Positions 36,151 through 42,300 of a stretch of DNA of 64,000 nucleotides are shown here, piece after piece. The stretch is from positions 47,410-111,409 of the forward strand of contig CAYXZK010000005.1 of the NCBI GenBank assembly GCA_964469955.1, given 5' to 3'. A program made the translations under genes and the position numbers. The notes under the pieces are model-generated. The model saw only the letters and a program-made list of their open reading frames with translations, did not search any database and was not told where the DNA came from. Position 1 is the first letter of the stretch, and each line of letters starts with the position of its first letter. The stretch comes from an uncultured Candidatus Saccharibacteria bacterium. GTDB taxonomy: Bacteria; Patescibacteriota; Minisyncoccia; Minisyncoccales; GWA2-38-27.

Positions 36151-38361
36151 TTACGCCCTTAAATTTGACCATTTTCCGCAACGGTCCCCCCATCTACTAA
36201 CTACTTTACCATTAATCCTGGCTTCAATCACTTCGCATTGGTTGGGGCAACCGTCGCAAGTGAAAGAAGAAGTTTTAATTTCTTGATTAGAAACATCCCA
36301 TCCTCTAAATTTGCCTTTGCTTTCCTGGCCAGCTCTTTGTTCCATTGCCAATAAAGCGACGCCTAAAGCGCCCATCACTATATTATGTTCTGGCACAATG
36401 ACTTTCTCTCCTAATTCTTGCTCAAAAGCTCTTATCATTCCTTTATTTTCGCTTACTCCGCCCTGAAAAACAATAGGTGGCTGTATGTTTTTGCCTTTTC
36501 CAACACCAGCTAAATAATTTCGCGCTAATCCTTGGCAAAGACCTGCGACAATATCTTCGGTCTTGTGTCCAATTTGTTGTTTATGAATCATATCCGACTC
36601 TGCAAAAATTGTGCAACGTGAAGCAATCGTAGTAGGGCTGTTTGACTTTAAAGCAACTTCCCCGAATTTTTCTATGGGAATTTCTAATCTAAAAGACTGC
36701 GCGTCTAAAAAAGATCCTGTGCCTGCAGCGCAATTATGAACTGCTATATTGTTGACAACATAAGAGTCATCTTTTGCTACTTTAAAATTATAAATATTTC
36801 CATTAAATTTATATTTGCTGATTTTCCTAATTGGCTCAAAAAAGAAATTAGAATAAATAAAAGATTTAGAGCTCTGCTTCTTTGGATTAATCAACGAACC
36901 ATCTTCCAGCTTATTAATATCTCTTCCGTGAACAGAAATAAAATAAACATATTTTCCACCTGTAGTCTTTTTAAAAGATCTTCGTAAAGTGCATTTGATT
37001 TTATTCCTCAATAAAATCCAATACAATTGATGAGCAAGAACTTCAGAAACAGTAGAGGAAACATACCTATTGCCAATTTTATTTTTACCTAATGTGTTTT
37101 TAGGTCTTTTCCTTAGCCGTCCATCGCCTCTGAAAAATCCTTTTAATATTTCTTTTTGCAGAGAAGGCTCCAATTTTAACAACTCTCGACTTATTTGTTT
37201 CTTGTCTGCACAAGAACCGCAAAGATATTTTACATAATCTGCTAAACTTTTACTATAAATCGAAACTGTGGCTGAACGATGCTCAGAGTTCTGTCTAACT
37301 TTAACATTAATGTCTTTAAAATTATGAGAAATAATGTTTTTTATATCTTTTACATAATTTTTTTCGTTAATATTAAACACAAAAGAAATCCCTCTTGGAT
37401 GTCTAATTTCCTTGTTCCCACAAGCTTGATTATATATAATAGACCCTTCTGCCAAATAATACCCTAAGAACCTAAACAAATCTGGTTTAAACATAAATTT
37501 GTCTATTTTTTTAAAAGGCTTAGATGCTTTGGGTTCAGTTTTTATAACCGAATAATCTATAAAAGTAGAATTATCAATTTTTGAAGGCAAAGGTGTTGCG
37601 ACGAAATCTCCTTTTCGAAATTCTTGTGCTGGAATAAATTTTGGCTCCCATGAAAAATTCTTATGTTTAACACAACGCTTTTTGCAAGTTCTTTCTTCCG
37701 GAGGTTTACAAATAACAATATTTTTTCTCACATTATCTTGATAGCATTTTATGTCTTTTCTTTTTAATCCTAAAATTGGATGTTCTGGTGTAATTTCCAA
37801 TTTTTTCAAGTTTGAAACTTCAATATCGATCATTTCCCCCTTATAATGCCTTTCAAAGACTTGATCTATTTTTTGAAAATCTCCCTGATGAGTTAAAACA
37901 TGCTGACCAATTTTTACTTCTTTTATAGGTCTTGAAGAATAATTTGGGTTTGTGGTTATCTTTGAATTACTACTCAAACAAATTGCGTTCATGCCAAAAT
38001 CAATTGCTACTCCGTCCTCTAAAATAATAATTTTTGAGTCTTGTCCTCCTATTTCAATAATTGTTCTAACTTCTGGAACTAAAAAACTTGATGCTTTAGC
38101 GTGAGATGTTATCTCATTTTTAACTAAATCAGCTCCTGCAATCACTCCTGCTAAATAGCGAGCTGAACCAGTTGTTCCAACTCCCCAGACTTCAACGCCT
38201 TCACCGATCTGTTCTTTTACTTTTTTTAAACCTGTTTTAACAGCAGTAATCGGATCTCCTTCTGTCCTAATGTATAAAGAAGCTAAAATTTCTTTTTTTT
38301 CATTTACCAGAACAAAATCTGTTGAGATAGAACCGACGTCAATTCCTAAATAAGTTTTCAT
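36151..38361 (-). CDS. BadF/BadG/BcrA/BcrD (HgdC-like) ATPase, 'CoA-enzyme activase', intein-containing precursor with Cys-rich C-terminal extension
   Basis: Exteins: MKTYLGIDVGSISTDF... (ASKHA phosphate-1), ...DFGMNAI | CAAGTGSFLD... (phosphate-2), ...IVFQGGVSENKGM. Removing residues 128-543 restores the canonical MNxxCAAGTGxFL motif. The extein total is about 320 aa. The C-terminus has CDGCPNQC...C. Confidence 0.85.
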   Translation of the reverse strand: MKTYLGIDVGSISTDFVLVNEKKEILASLYIRTEGDPITAVKTGLKKVKEQIGEGVEVWGVGTTGSARYLAGVIAGADLVKNEITSHAKASSFLVPEVRTIIEIGGQDSKIIILEDGVAIDFGMNAICLSSNSKITTNPNYSSRPIKEVKIGQHVLTHQGDFQKIDQVFERHYKGEMIDIEVSNLKKLEITPEHPILGLKRKDIKCYQDNVRKNIVICKPPEERTCKKRCVKHKNFSWEPKFIPAQEFRKGDFVATPLPSKIDNSTFIDYSVIKTEPKASKPFKKIDKFMFKPDLFRFLGYYLAEGSIIYNQACGNKEIRHPRGISFVFNINEKNYVKDIKNIISHNFKDINVKVRQNSEHRSATVSIYSKSLADYVKYLCGSCADKKQISRELLKLEPSLQKEILKGFFRGDGRLRKRPKNTLGKNKIGNRYVSSTVSEVLAHQLYWILLRNKIKCTLRRSFKKTTGGKYVYFISVHGRDINKLEDGSLINPKKQSSKSFIYSNFFFEPIRKISKYKFNGNIYNFKVAKDDSYVVNNIAVHNCAAGTGSFLDAQSFRLEIPIEKFGEVALKSNSPTTIASRCTIFAESDMIHKQQIGHKTEDIVAGLCQGLARNYLAGVGKGKNIQPPIVFQGGVSENKGMIRAFEQELGEKVIVPEHNIVMGALGVALLAMEQRAGQESKGKFRGWDVSNQEIKTSSFTCDGCPNQCEVIEARINGKVVSRWGDRCGKWSNLRA
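36733..37980 (-). mobile_element. Intein (416 aa) with embedded LAGLIDADG homing endonuclease, inserted in the activase CAAGTG motif
   Basis: Starts with Cys (CLSSNSKITT, block A), has block B ITPEHPIL and a C-terminal ...NFKVAKDDSYVVNNIAVHN followed by the +1 Cys. Two LAGLIDADG motifs are present: FLGYYLAEGS and LKGFFRGDGRL. Confidence 0.8.
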
Positions 38362-38372
38362 ACGTTATACGT

Positions 38373-39440
38373 TTATGTATTTTTTTTATTATGATAATTA
38401 TTAACTACATCCGAGAATGCCTCTAAGCGAGTTTGAATTCCCGCTTCGGCTACTTGTTCGTCTAAAGACAAAGATAAAAACGGGATTTTCTTTTCTTTGT
38501 GTATCTTTTCTAAAATAGGCCTGACAGTAACCTCTGGCATACAAGCAAGTGGCAAAATATGAACCACGCCATCAAGTCTTTTTTTAACAGCAACCAGCAT
38601 TTCGTTGACAGCATCTCTGCCATGCCCACCAACAGTTGTTTTTAAATAAGGATAAACCCTTTTCTGCGCAATATAGTCCAACCAAGGAAAAGCTTCGTGC
38701 CTTAGAAAATACGAAAGACTAAGGTCTCGATGAACTTCCATGCCCATTTGTCCTAATTTCTTTTCTAAATCAAAATTAACAATATTGTCGGTTACCATAA
38801 AAATTTCTCCCAGAATGCCTATCTTTATTACGTCTTTATTTTTTATTATTTTAATTTCTTTAAGTTTTTTTAAAGTCTTTTTTTTAAGTTTGCGCAAAGC
38901 GCTTCTTGTTTTTAGCGCGCCTATATTATTAAAAAAATAATCTAAAACTTTATCTGTCTCTCCTTTTGTCGTTTCTCTTGGTCTAAAATAAGCAGCTTTC
39001 TTTTCTAATCTTTCTATAAATCTAATTATACTAAAAGTAGAGTAAAAAGCATCTAATATTTTAAACCAAGAAATTTTATTTATTCTCTTTATTTCTCTTA
39101 TTCTTGAAATAGGATGGCTTGTATTCAGGTTTATAATCTTTGCTTTAAATCCAGCATCGTTTAAGGCTTTTTGTTGAATTATCCAATAATATCTAAATCT
39201 ACAAATACCTCCTAAATTTTCCCACATGAAAATAGTATCTGCGCCTCTTCTTAAAGAAGATACATAATTTCCCATATTTACTTTCAAGGGAAAACAAAAA
39301 AGTTCCGGGGAAATCCTTGCTCCTTCTCTAATAGAGGTTTGGTTAGTTTTTTCAGGAGCAATAACGTCAAATCCCAATTTTTCAAAGAGAATTGTAATCG
39401 CAGGAGTATAATGCCCCCAATATGGAAAAGTTACTTTCAT
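38373..39440 (-). CDS. Acyl-CoA dehydratase activase-related protein (YjiM/DUF2229-like, HgdB-related), paralog B
   Basis: 355 aa with FCFPLK... and a C-terminal LSLDEQVAEAGIQTRLEAF motif shared with the upstream paralog. There is an 11-nt gap to the activase gene. Confidence 0.55.
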   Translation of the reverse strand: MKVTFPYWGHYTPAITILFEKLGFDVIAPEKTNQTSIREGARISPELFCFPLKVNMGNYVSSLRRGADTIFMWENLGGICRFRYYWIIQQKALNDAGFKAKIINLNTSHPISRIREIKRINKISWFKILDAFYSTFSIIRFIERLEKKAAYFRPRETTKGETDKVLDYFFNNIGALKTRSALRKLKKKTLKKLKEIKIIKNKDVIKIGILGEIFMVTDNIVNFDLEKKLGQMGMEVHRDLSLSYFLRHEAFPWLDYIAQKRVYPYLKTTVGGHGRDAVNEMLVAVKKRLDGVVHILPLACMPEVTVRPILEKIHKEKKIPFLSLSLDEQVAEAGIQTRLEAFSDVVNNYHNKKNT

Positions 39441-39448
39441 AAAATAAA

Positions 39449-40471
39449 TTAATGAATTGTGTCTACAAATGCCTCTAATCTGGTTTGCAACCCAGCTTCA
39501 GCAGTATGTTCGTCAACCAATAAATATAGAAATGGAATCTTTCTCTGTTTAAACATTTTTTCAATGAACTCTTTCAAAACCGAATCGCATCCACACTGAA
39601 ACGCAGATACTTCAATAGCCCCTGATAATTTTAATAAAGACAACGCTAAAGATTCTGCTTTAAGGTTGTCGTCATTGGTCTCATTTACCTTTGCTAGTAA
39701 GCTAATCTTAATAATCTTCTGGACTTGTTCTGTTATGTCTCTGCCAAATTCCCAATGCCAGTTGGGAAACTCAGAATCCTTGGCAGCTATTTCATCATGT
39801 GTTAATTTTTCAATAAAACCCATTTTGTTGTTTAGCGATCTGTCTTGTTTTAGTGGGATTTCGTCAATATATATTAATTCCATCCCAAGATCGTTTATTT
39901 TTTTCTCAATCCCCAAATTTACGTATTCGTCGTAAAGTATATACGGATGGCTTATAAAAACTATTTTTTTGCGCTGCGATTTGATTTTTTTATAAAAAGA
40001 TTGCTTTTTTTTTGCTTCTCGTTTCTCTATTTCTCGTTTGCCTTTGTTGATAGCTTTTTTAATTTTCTCTGGGTCGTTGCAAAATTGTTTTCCTATTTTA
40101 AAAGCAACCTTATCAAGAGATTCTTTTTTAAAATCAATTTTTGGAAAAATTATAGGAGTTTTAATTACTAAAGCAGCTATATCTGAAAGGGCAAAAAATT
40201 TAGGGCAATATTCAAGCCCTATCTTGTTTCTAATCATACGCGGAATAAAAATGTAATCTACCTTATCTTCCAATTCTAAAACATGGCCTAAAAAAACTTT
40301 GCTAGAAAAACAACTTTCCGTATCAGACGCTTTTGTCCCTTGAGCCACGATCTGTCTATTGGTTAATGGAGAAATTAACACATTTAAATCTATGTTTTTA
40401 AAAAAAGTCCTCCAAAATTCAATTCCTGGTTCTTTCCAATAAATTAAAGCTCTTGGTATTCCAATTGTCAT
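39449..40471 (-). CDS. Acyl-CoA dehydratase activase-related protein (YjiM/DUF2229-like), paralog A
   Basis: Begins MTIGIPRALIYWKEPGIEFW..., the start I recall for DUF2229, and ends LLVDEHTAEAGLQTRLEAF. The ORF-track start at 40501 is a TTG, and the ATG at 40471 is preferred. There is an 8-nt gap to paralog B. Confidence 0.55.
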   Translation of the reverse strand: MTIGIPRALIYWKEPGIEFWRTFFKNIDLNVLISPLTNRQIVAQGTKASDTESCFSSKVFLGHVLELEDKVDYIFIPRMIRNKIGLEYCPKFFALSDIAALVIKTPIIFPKIDFKKESLDKVAFKIGKQFCNDPEKIKKAINKGKREIEKREAKKKQSFYKKIKSQRKKIVFISHPYILYDEYVNLGIEKKINDLGMELIYIDEIPLKQDRSLNNKMGFIEKLTHDEIAAKDSEFPNWHWEFGRDITEQVQKIIKISLLAKVNETNDDNLKAESLALSLLKLSGAIEVSAFQCGCDSVLKEFIEKMFKQRKIPFLYLLVDEHTAEAGLQTRLEAFVDTIH

Positions 40472-40537
40472 ATAAGTTAATAAACGATAGTTAATGATCA
40501 ATAATCACTAATCAATTATCACCAATCAATCATTGAA

Positions 40538-41797
40538 TCAGAAAAGCGTATTTTGCTGATCCGGATTCTTTCTCTTTGTTTTTGAAAAAATTTCTACTTT
40601 TCCAAAAACTCCGTCATATCCAGGCAATATATTTATTTTCCCCTGCCTAACCCTTATAACCCCTTCAGCAATTTTTGGCAATGTCGCTTTTTCTAAGTCT
40701 TGATATGAAGAATCTAACAAAATTTTAAATTCACTTTCGAATTTTTTAATTAAGTTTTCGTATTCCGCTTTAACCTTTTTAGAGTTAGGCAATGTTCCAA
40801 CGGCTTCAGCGATAATTTCTTTCAAAGGAACTAAGCTTTTAAACGGAATAGCTTTTTTCGGCTTAACTCCTTCTTTTCTGTCTGCTAAGAAATTAATCCT
40901 GTTTAAAACTCCAATTGTTAAGGGTTTCCCGCAAACGGGACAGATGTTATTGTATTTTTCTGATTCCGCGGGATTCAAGCAAACAGCGCAAGCGCGATGA
41001 CCATCGTAATGATATTTGCCTTCTTGCGGAAAAAATTCAATAGTATAGGCAAACTTATTTGAATTCTTAGACTTTAATGCTTCTATGATAGAAAAATAAT
41101 CAAGTTCTGTATCAAAAACATTTGCTTCTCTTCCTAATTTCTCTGGAGAATGCGCGTCGCTGTTTGAAATCAAGGTTATGCTATCTAAAGCTGATATTCT
41201 CCAAAGCATCGGACAATCTGCCGACAATCCTGTTTCTATGGCAAAGATATAATTTGATAGGTCTTCAAAACATTCTTCAATAGAATCAAAACCTGATTTT
41301 GAACCGAATATTCCAAACCAAGGCGTCATGCAATGAGCAGGAACAACTAAACATTCTGGAGAAACGCTTAGAACGATTTTTAGAAGCTCTTTTGCATCTA
41401 ATCCTAAGATTGGTCTTCCATCAGCTTTTAAATTTCCGATCAAGCTAAGCTTATTGTTGATTTTTTCAACTATTTCAAAACTTGGAGCAAAAACCAAAAT
41501 ATGTATTTTCCTAACCCTGCCATTTTTAGAATAAATACAACTAATTTCAGAAGTCAGCATGAAACGAGTAAATTCATTGCCTTCTAAAAAACTTTTTTTT
41601 AACTTAAACAATCCTTTTTCGCATGGCTCGAGTTTATTCCGCAAGTTTTGAAACCATTCTGGATGAGTAAAATCGCCTGTGCCTAAAACTTTTATTCCTT
41701 TTATTTTCGCCCATCTGTCCAAACTTTCTAAGTCCATATTCTTGCTTGTGGCGCGTGAATACTTGGAATGAATATGAAGGTCCGCTATAAATACCAT
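40538..41797 (-). CDS. PHP-family phosphoesterase with Zn ribbon (COG1379/TIGR00375-like), putative endonuclease Q (EndoQ) homolog
   Basis: 419 aa with an N-terminal PHP motif ADLHIHSKYSRAT, later His/Asp ligands, and an internal CAVC...CPVC zinc ribbon. Length and architecture match archaeal EndoQ. Confidence 0.6.
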   Translation of the reverse strand: MVFIADLHIHSKYSRATSKNMDLESLDRWAKIKGIKVLGTGDFTHPEWFQNLRNKLEPCEKGLFKLKKSFLEGNEFTRFMLTSEISCIYSKNGRVRKIHILVFAPSFEIVEKINNKLSLIGNLKADGRPILGLDAKELLKIVLSVSPECLVVPAHCMTPWFGIFGSKSGFDSIEECFEDLSNYIFAIETGLSADCPMLWRISALDSITLISNSDAHSPEKLGREANVFDTELDYFSIIEALKSKNSNKFAYTIEFFPQEGKYHYDGHRACAVCLNPAESEKYNNICPVCGKPLTIGVLNRINFLADRKEGVKPKKAIPFKSLVPLKEIIAEAVGTLPNSKKVKAEYENLIKKFESEFKILLDSSYQDLEKATLPKIAEGVIRVRQGKINILPGYDGVFGKVEIFSKTKRKNPDQQNTLF

Positions 41798-42131: not shown

Positions 42132-42254
42132 ATGACACAAGACACACTCTATCCTTTATTCGTATCTCAAGATATGCCTGAAGAAGACGGAGAAGAAACT
42201 CCTGACACAGATATGCCTGAAGAAGGCGGAGAAGACGAAGGATCGGTTTTTTAA
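42132..42254 (+). CDS. Small acidic tandem-repeat peptide (40 aa), hypothetical
   Basis: MTQDTLYPLFVSQDMPEEDGEETPDTDMPEEGGEDEGSVF with a DMPEE(D/G)GE(E/D) repeat. It is bracketed by a consensus promoter and a terminator. It is below the ORF-track size cut-off. Confidence 0.35.
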   Translation: MTQDTLYPLFVSQDMPEEDGEETPDTDMPEEGGEDEGSVF

Positions 42255-42276
42255 AAAAAACATAGAAACCCAAAAA

Positions 42277-42300
42277 ACACCGCTTGACGGTGTTTTTTGG
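42277..42300 (+). terminator. Rho-independent terminator after the small peptide ORF
   Basis: AAAACACCG CTTGA CGGTGTTTT followed by TTGG. Confidence 0.55.

Follow-up and report, generated by a model that had tools for sequence, protein, structure and literature searches.

A predicted three-polypeptide relative of PlsA/PlsR and Ger with an intein-interrupted activase in a Patescibacteria-type contig

The window analysed here is a stretch of 64,000 nucleotides of contig CAYXZK010000005.1, from an uncultured Patescibacteria-type bacterium. Its matches include JGI metagenome contigs up to 118 kb long, and its closest relatives carry the labels Patescibacteria, Nealsonbacteria, Parcubacteria or Paceibacterales. 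Three minus-strand open reading frames (ORFs) occupy positions 36151-40501 in the ORF listing. They encode two DUF2229 proteins, termed A and B, and an ATP-dependent activase whose reading frame is interrupted by an intein. Judged from its sequence, the locus belongs to a split, single-activase, three-polypeptide subfamily related to the plasmalogen synthase PlsA/PlsR and to Ger, a reductase of glycerol esters; Red1 and Red2 denote the reductase domains of those proteins. The features of the locus are:

39449..40471, minus strand: gene A, 340 aa from the ATG; DUF2229 protein, Red1 counterpart
38373..39440, minus strand: gene B, 355 aa; paralog of A, Red2/PlsR counterpart
36151..38361, minus strand: activase precursor ORF, 736 aa; N-extein, intein and C-extein
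37981..38361, minus strand: activase N-extein, aa 1-127, ending ...DFGMNAI
36733..37980, minus strand: activase intein, class-1, 416 aa, precursor residues 128-543
37441-37479, minus strand: intein LAGLIDADG motif LGYYLAEGS
37117-37149, minus strand: intein LAGLIDADG motif FFRGDGR
36151..36732, minus strand: activase C-extein, aa 544-736 and stop codon, beginning CAAGTG
36154..36327, minus strand: Cys4 tail of the activase, C286-x2-C289-x3-C293...C312 in spliced numbering

The gene cluster, the activase and its intein

The ORF coordinates bear out the three-gene cluster of the original prediction, with gaps of 8 nt between A and B and 11 nt between B and the activase. The ORF of gene A spans 40501..39449 (-) when counted from an in-frame TTG at 40501. 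However, the ATG at 40471 is more likely the true start because homologs and the database entry P0001 begin there; the protein then opens with MTIGIPRAL, which includes the IGIPRAL start described earlier. A and B are paralogs (BLASTP E value of 7e-15), as had been proposed. The C-terminal motif that they were said to share is related in the two proteins but not identical, being DEHTAEAGLQTRLEAF in A and DEQVAEAGIQTRLEAF in B. The region at 34-43.5 kb was scanned for RNA families, repeats, promoters and terminators; inside the cluster nothing exceeded chance, and no terminator-like site of note was present. A, B and the activase all lack a preceding Shine-Dalgarno-like sequence.

The activase ORF of 736 aa exceeds the usual length more than twofold, and the spliced product would comprise 320 aa. 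The original prediction did not include an intein, and automatic gene calls name the precursor ORF merely an activase, at twice the normal size. The intein matches the Pfam family Intein_splicing with 42 bits and an E value of 1e-10 (cut-off 35.8), TIGR01445, an intein N-terminal-region model and, exactly at the cut-off, LAGLIDADG_3 (22.5 bits). In a block alignment of the window allele with five alleles of the same site, the splicing residues comprise Cys1 (CLSSNSKI), block B ITPEH, block F, the terminal VHN and the +1 Cys. Excision of the intein fuses ...DFGMNAI with CAAGTGSFLD....

Homologous loci were surveyed by scanning one genome per species, which yielded 80 loci whose ORFs were called and classified. 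In the nearest genome (L008), whose A protein is 82% identical, the activase is uninterrupted and represents an intein-free allele. Once the intein sequence is removed, the window gene can be aligned gap-free to that of L008 over 963/963 nt (84.5% identity), and ...MNxxCAAGTG... reads unbroken in L008 and about 40 other activases. The GC content is 29.6% in the intein versus 38.9% in the exteins. Based on these sequence features, the intein is very probably competent to splice. No further intein of the same kind was found in the 64-kb window. The N-terminal splicing domain of the intein contains a Cys-rich insert with four Cys (37672-37746 (-), residues 79-103, CYQ...ICKPPEERTCKKRC), which is conserved in the full-length alleles and partly retained in a mini-intein; a role in metal binding or DNA contact is conceivable.

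The assignment of the third gene as an activase is confirmed by PF01869 (BcrAD_BadFG; 150.8 bits, E value 7e-44, cut-off 31.5) and TIGR00241 (184.6 bits, E value 2e-54, cut-off 125.4). The intein breaks the family match into residues 1-135 and 531-672, and after splicing the 320-aa protein can be aligned over its entire length with MbdQ, HadI and HgdC (E values of 4e-45 to 1e-37). The motifs CAAGTG (Cys128) and SRCTIFAESD (Cys167) line up with those of HadI, MbdQ and HgdC and are invariant in 45/45 relatives. We take both motifs to provide [4Fe-4S] ligands in the activator structures 1HUX and 4EHT; in HgdC the ligands are presumably Cys127 and Cys166, equivalent to Cys128 and Cys167 here. The latter two residues are thus the predicted [4Fe-4S] ligands 1 and 2 of the spliced activase.

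The C-terminal CDGCPNQC...C tail, invariant in 45/45 relatives, had been regarded as an extra of this activase. It is present but not extra, as it follows the second activase domain in the fused PlsA/Ger-like proteins of Listeria, Deltaproteobacteria and Dehalococcoidia (with detections in L076, L080, L081 and L087) and also occurs in the split activase of Monoglobus. In contrast, the solved activators (243-276 aa), HadI and HgdC among them, and E. coli YjiL (254 aa) lack it. The Cys4 tail is therefore a hallmark of the family rather than a peculiarity of this locus. A further residue, Cys193 of the spliced activase (GLCQGLARNY, 36514-36516 (-)), is invariant in 45/45 split-type activases including that of Monoglobus, and is missing in the Listeria fused protein, HadI, MbdQ and the other solved activators compared.

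Reductase subunits A and B and their relation to known enzymes

Protein A matches the Pfam DUF2229 family (PF09989, threshold 29.4 bits) with 146.5 bits and an E value of 1e-42 over model positions 1-216 of 218. The match of B, with 50.0 bits and an E value of 4e-13, is limited to the N-terminal model positions 12-75 of 218. With the HGD-D family (PF06050, threshold 28.4 bits) B scores 28.8 bits over model positions 280-340 only, and A stays below the threshold with 25.0 bits over the last ~60 residues of the model. Hence the DUF2229 assignment in the original prediction stands for both proteins and their similarity to HGD-D is confined to a C-terminal stretch, with a score below the threshold in A; neither protein matches HGD-D at full length in the Pfam search. 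Sequence searches against solved structures likewise confine the similarity of A and B to the last ~65 residues of the double-cubane cluster protein (DCCP) and HadC.

AlphaFold2 (AF2) models of A and B have mean confidence scores (pLDDT) of 84.7 and 87.7, respectively, and their structural matches to catalytic subunits, identified by Foldseek, span the full length. All 18 matches of B at E values of 1e-3 or lower are to DCCP, BzdNO, HadBC or MbdON, with template modelling (TM) scores of up to 0.60. The top 13 matches of A fall within the same family of 2-hydroxyacyl-CoA dehydratases (HAD), benzoyl-CoA reductases (BCR) and DCCP (DCCP, HadBC, BzdNO and MbdON); three weaker matches are to the substrate-binding protein FpvC. 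The models indicate that A and B adopt the HAD/BCR/DCCP catalytic-subunit fold, and we consider the enzyme class and the mechanism proposed below highly probable. This agrees with the earlier proposal that an activator is paired here with Fe-S partner proteins of that superfamily; the three genes are closely linked, and none of the outcomes named beforehand as refuting that proposal was observed. A insertion of ~30 residues in A (KISLLAKVNETNDDNLKAESLALSLL, residues ~255-285, 39620-39710 (-)) is absent from most homologs and coincides with a low-confidence region of the model, with block pLDDT of about 58-61.

Conserved cysteines, expected of such proteins, are present in both. Those of A that are invariant, Cys54, Cys89 and Cys293 counted from the ATG, occur in 70/70 homologs, and B contains a total of three Cys (49, 80 and 300), each invariant in 51/51 homologs. 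A three-Cys site per subunit is the cluster pattern of 2-hydroxyacyl-CoA dehydratases, which leaves one iron open for the carbonyl oxygen. The pattern in A and B would fit such a [4Fe-4S] cluster with an open iron and not a six-Cys double-cubane site; the NCBIfam double_cubane model gives 22.6 bits versus a cut-off of 350.

Among the structurally defined systems, the HadBC/HadI and HgdAB/HgdC dehydratases share with the locus an activator homodimer with a bridging cluster, to the extent that the full-length activase match indicates it. Their catalytic component, too, is a heterodimer of two paralogous Fe-S subunits with this fold (the top matches include 3o3m, with TM scores of 0.5-0.6), whereas the sequence likeness of A and B to HGD-D is confined to the last ~60 residues. 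DCCP and DCCP-R (PDB 6eno and 7yyl) give the best Foldseek E values for both A and B and also work with an ATP-dependent activase. However, each subunit of the DCCP homodimer binds an [8Fe-9S] cluster through six Cys ligands (PDB 6eno), whereas A and B, presumably a heterodimer, contribute three invariant Cys apiece.

The closest systems of tested function are PlsA/PlsR and Ger. According to the literature (PMC13159169; PMC8788747; PMC12838417; PMC9702350), PlsA/PlsR is the anaerobic plasmalogen synthase, encoded by CPE1194/CPE1195 in C. perfringens and by single genes in Enterococcus, Lactococcus and Bifidobacterium, and anaerobic expression of PlsA/PlsR or Ger in E. coli led to the conversion of lipid esters to ethers of the vinyl or alkyl type. 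Examples of the single-gene form are E. faecalis EF1327 and a Listeria protein of 1475 aa (in L005), which, going by PMC9702350, is probably the product of the Listeria pls gene. PMC13159169 describes Ger as a glycerol ester reductase, represented by Tmari_0479 of T. maritima and SHJ90043 of D. alkenivorans, with a BBD core architecture (PF01869 twice plus PF09989) followed by PF06050/PF09989 fragments. PlsA/PlsR and Ger have in common two PF01869 domains, PF09989 (DUF2229) and PF06050 (PMC13159169; PMC8788747 and the legend of its supplementary Fig. S3). The family had been called uncharacterised in the original prediction; this no longer applies, as enzymes of the same architecture were tested by heterologous expression (PMC13159169, PMC12838417 and the supplement of PMC8788747), and the DUF2229 branch is already characterised through them. 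Ger and PlsA are inseparable by sequence (PMC11868695), therefore no prediction of alkyl versus alkenyl products is made for the locus.

In the comparisons, fused homologs from Listeria, Paraclostridium and metagenome-assembled genomes of Desulfobacterales stood in for CPE1194/95, EF1327, Tmari_0479 and SHJ90043. The Listeria protein aligns in order with the activase plus Cys tail (residues 319-632), A (669-886) and B (1043-1232). In hhalign comparisons, the A profile matches Listeria Red1 with 99% probability and an E value of 8e-18, and the B profile matches Red2 with 97% probability and an E value of 4e-11, with the three Cys aligned. The A profile finds no match in Red2, so that A corresponds to Red1 and B to Red2 one to one. 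The fused Ger-like homologs of ~1400 aa from Desulfobacterales and Deltaproteobacteria (L076, L081 and L087) also align with activase, tail, A and B in this order. The locus thus shares with PlsA/PlsR the module content and order, the three conserved Cys per reductase domain and membership in the oxygen-sensitive HAD/BCR superfamily. It differs in having a single free-standing activase, three polypeptides and an intein, whereas PlsA has two tandem activase domains fused to Red1 and Ger is a single fused protein, likewise with two activase domains. Two activase domains are found in the fused proteins of L005, L006, L081 and L087.

Intein sites at predicted cluster cysteines

Inteins occur at three sites in the family. 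Site a, before CAAGTG, carries the intein of the window and inteins of 417-418 aa in L016, L034, L038 and L039. L055 has a mini-intein of 184 aa there, in which the endonuclease alone has been lost. Inteins at site a were found in about 60 protein clusters at 90% identity in a large protein collection; in many alleles the penultimate His is replaced, and the Asn and the +1 Cys are invariant. Site b lies directly in front of the activase's second cluster Cys (...IAGR/C...KN/CTIFAESD, slashes marking the junctions) and is occupied in L060:8951-10897 and at least six clusters, represented by P0181-P0185, P0192 and P0134. P0134 (1161 aa) contains inteins at both activase sites, a and b. Site c is in B, before the invariant Cys300 (...LLPxx/C...HN/CMPE...), and is occupied in L021:7869-9137, L037:11815-13407, P0257 and P0362; P0362 has a full-size intein in a protein of 732 aa and P0257 a mini-intein in a protein of 527 aa. 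Each of the three sites directly precedes a predicted Fe-S-ligand Cys, namely activase Cys128 and Cys167 and the ligand candidate Cys300 of B.

This position at cluster cysteines is the most unusual trait of the system. A literature search found nothing on inteins in activases, in Patescibacteria or at these cluster cysteines. Between alleles, intein identity (47-73%) is slightly lower than extein identity (66-84%), which argues for long residence under selection; a recent horizontal homing of the intein was rejected on this ground. The inteins of M. tuberculosis SufB and P. abyssi MoaA are likewise class-1 inteins with Cys1 and Cys +1 at a conserved functional site, and there splicing can be restrained by a disulfide between Cys1 and Cys+1 or by oxidative stress. 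The host here differs in being an archerase-type activase in which the +1 Cys is at the same time a predicted cluster ligand. By analogy, O2 may lead to a Cys1/Cys+1 disulfide that blocks splicing, such that the enzyme would mature only in reducing conditions. The intein sites offer a natural example of inteins that target catalytic cysteines, and an intein in an oxygen-sensitive enzyme is a direct test case for redox-conditional splicing.

Distribution, proposed reaction and competing explanations

The order A-B-activase recurs in 39/57 loci of the Patescibacteria (candidate phyla radiation, CPR) type from other genomes, often with overlapping stop and start codons, which rules out a chance arrangement. 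The split arrangement is also found in Bacillota (including Monoglobus, L007) and Kiritimatiellae; Planctomycetota, including Ca. Kuenenia, have the order activase-A-B, and in Chloroflexota A and B are fused. Complete fusions with two activase domains were seen in Deltaproteobacteria, Dehalococcoidia, Planctomycetota and Bacillota. Searching exhaustively with B yielded 259 representative clusters at E values of 1e-30 or lower. The best 150 of these 259 comprise stand-alone B proteins (~355-375 aa), A-B fusions (~670-770 aa), intein-bearing B proteins or fragments, with no fully fused protein among them. Some loci retain an endonuclease Q (EndoQ) homolog and A with neither B nor an activase within 7 kb (L018, L023, L054 and L058) or A-B without an adjacent activase (L022, L059 and L061). 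The small and patchy family, in which some members have A alone, does not accord with the core redox function that had been suggested. Patescibacteria-like A-B-activase clusters, with 43-45% identity to A, are present in bins assigned to Cloacimonadia and Humimicrobiaceae (L029 and L032), where mis-binning or gene transfer may account for their placement.

Neither CoA-transferase nor 2-hydroxyacid dehydrogenase genes neighbour the module. Directly upstream of A lies an EndoQ homolog (40538-41797 (-); PDB 5zb8, E value 2e-55, full length), which takes this position in 42 Patescibacteria loci and in 0 loci of other phyla. A functional link between EndoQ and A was rejected: the arrangement is restricted to one lineage and genes farther upstream are conserved too, which together point to inherited gene order. 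An apparent EndoQ-A fusion in L008 (764-aa ORF) was also dismissed as an artefact, the junction being a run of N in the record. The EndoQ gene of L037 (L037:3012-5507) itself contains an intein of 416 aa at ...VPAH/C...IHN/CWTPWF. The 66-nt spacer between EndoQ and A (40472-40537) abounds in TGATT(G/A) repeats (tgattcaatgattgattggtgataattgattagtgattattgatcatta). Upstream of the EndoQ gene, at 42170-42235 and 42270-42300, are a 27-nt direct repeat in two copies with 39-nt spacing and one mismatch, and a strong terminator-like hairpin of 14 pairs on the minus strand.

On balance, and with moderate confidence, we favour the reading that the locus encodes a three-polypeptide ATP-dependent low-potential reductase of the DUF2229 branch that includes PlsA/PlsR and Ger, with a lipid ester as the most likely substrate. 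The analysis establishes the gene structure, the anatomy and insertion site of the intein, the fold, the Cys conservation and the homology to PlsA/Ger-type proteins domain by domain; in proposing a mechanism we infer splicing in vivo, the cluster content, the role of the tail, the electron donor and, above all, the substrate. The 736-aa precursor would be translated and the 416-aa intein spliced out, joining ...DFGMNAI to CAAGTG... in the 320-aa activase, such that the +1 splicing nucleophile would be the very Cys that later binds the cluster. On the model of HgdC and HadI, two spliced chains would pair into a homodimer, each contributing Cys128 and Cys167 to a single shared [4Fe-4S] cluster. 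The Cys4 tail is probably a metal-binding element that docks the activase onto A, an idea that stems from its location between the second activase domain and Red1 in the fused homologs. A ferredoxin or flavodoxin would reduce the activase, and ATP hydrolysis would push one electron into the A/B heterodimer, where the open iron of the three-Cys cluster would bind the carbonyl oxygen of the substrate and yield a ketyl radical. The sn-1 acyl ester of a glycerolipid would thereby become a vinyl or alkyl ether; this choice of substrate, suggested by homology, is plausible but tentative, with less than even odds. In a host unable to make its own lipids, ether formation would amount to the remodelling of scavenged lipids.

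Several observations weigh against this reading. Identity to the fused PlsA/Ger-like proteins is just 23-28%, the locus has one activase domain versus two in the validated enzymes, and no lipid gene, redox gene or other conserved partner recurs beside the module across phyla. Other points, in addition to weighing against it, speak for an enzyme of the same class that acts on a non-lipid or other carbonyl substrate and is a functional paralog, not an equivalent, of PlsA/Ger. B scores 140-200 bits with split-type B proteins and less than 45 bits with fused Red2, and a rough neighbour-joining tree with no bootstrap places the split forms, this locus among them, together with the A-B fusions as the sister group of the fused PlsA/Ger-like clade, for the A half and the B half alike. 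Split and fused forms also coexist: Ca. Kuenenia carries a split cluster (L077) and is reported, in the supplement of PMC8788747, to have a two-activase Ger-type protein, and in Bacillota, which have both forms, additional PlsA homologs without an activation domain have a role called unclear (PMC13274423). The presence of both types in one genome suggests that they differ in substrate or position specificity. Bacterial ether lipids were not detected in a CPR-rich size fraction from Crystal Geyser (bioRxiv 10.1101/465690), the apparent source of several of the related genomes, whose record names start with CG; this speaks mildly against an ether-lipid role, or for conditional expression. Finally, Cys193 sets the 45/45 split-type activases apart from the Listeria fused protein and the solved activators. 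Nonetheless, all DUF2229-branch members of tested function act on glycerolipid esters, the domain order, Cys pattern and Cys4 tail are common to the locus and PlsA/Ger, and the gene context points to no alternative substrate. A different substrate is therefore a serious possibility that falls short of being probable.

Two further explanations appear far less plausible. The original prediction envisaged a YjiL/YjiM-type uncharacterised system, i.e., a new low-potential reductase with a core redox role. The activase and E. coli YjiL do belong to one Pfam family, BcrAD_BadFG, and activase and partner genes are adjacent in both systems. However, E. coli has one partner gene versus two here, and YjiM is a full-length HGD-D protein (407.8 bits, E value 7e-122, model positions 1-342) without DUF2229. 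In hhalign comparisons the A and B profiles match YjiM with 23-27% probability over the C-terminal ~60 residues only, and a YjiM-type membership of A and B was rejected on these grounds. Since the tail and the DUF2229 pair are common to PlsA/Ger-type proteins, and the distribution is patchy with relatives that lack an adjacent B or activase, we give this version very little weight. The same low standing applies to a decaying locus, in which the intein-bearing activase would be dead and the module non-functional in this genome. The relatives with only A, or with A-B and no adjacent activase, and the loss of the penultimate His in many intein alleles would fit such decay, but the three ORFs are intact and retain all family-invariant residues, including ten Cys, the window intein has the full canonical set (Cys1, TxxH, HN and +1 Cys), and intein identity tracks that of the host gene (about 55-70% versus 66-72% for the exteins), indicating purifying selection.

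The favoured reading has a bolder extension: Nealsonbacteria/Paceibacteria-type Patescibacteria would convert scavenged ester phospholipids to plasmalogen or alkyl-ether lipids, with the inteins before Cys128, Cys167 and B Cys300 acting as redox-gated switches. Taken jointly, these two proposals are speculative and we consider the combination unlikely. No anaerobic route from ester to ether lipids is known other than the DUF2229/activase enzymes, which bear on the 'lipid divide' and on the sources of ether-lipid biomarkers. A published survey uses long fused queries, with DIAMOND and at least 30% query coverage (PMC13159169), and a 2026 preprint survey of sponge symbionts uses tBLASTn with full-length matches. 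As both query with fused proteins, we infer that the split single-activase form is under-detected. Should the split form make ether lipids, ultra-small symbionts regarded as mere borrowers of lipids would in fact be remodelling them; otherwise the family would contain a second chemistry, present also in Bacillota, Planctomycetota and Chloroflexota.

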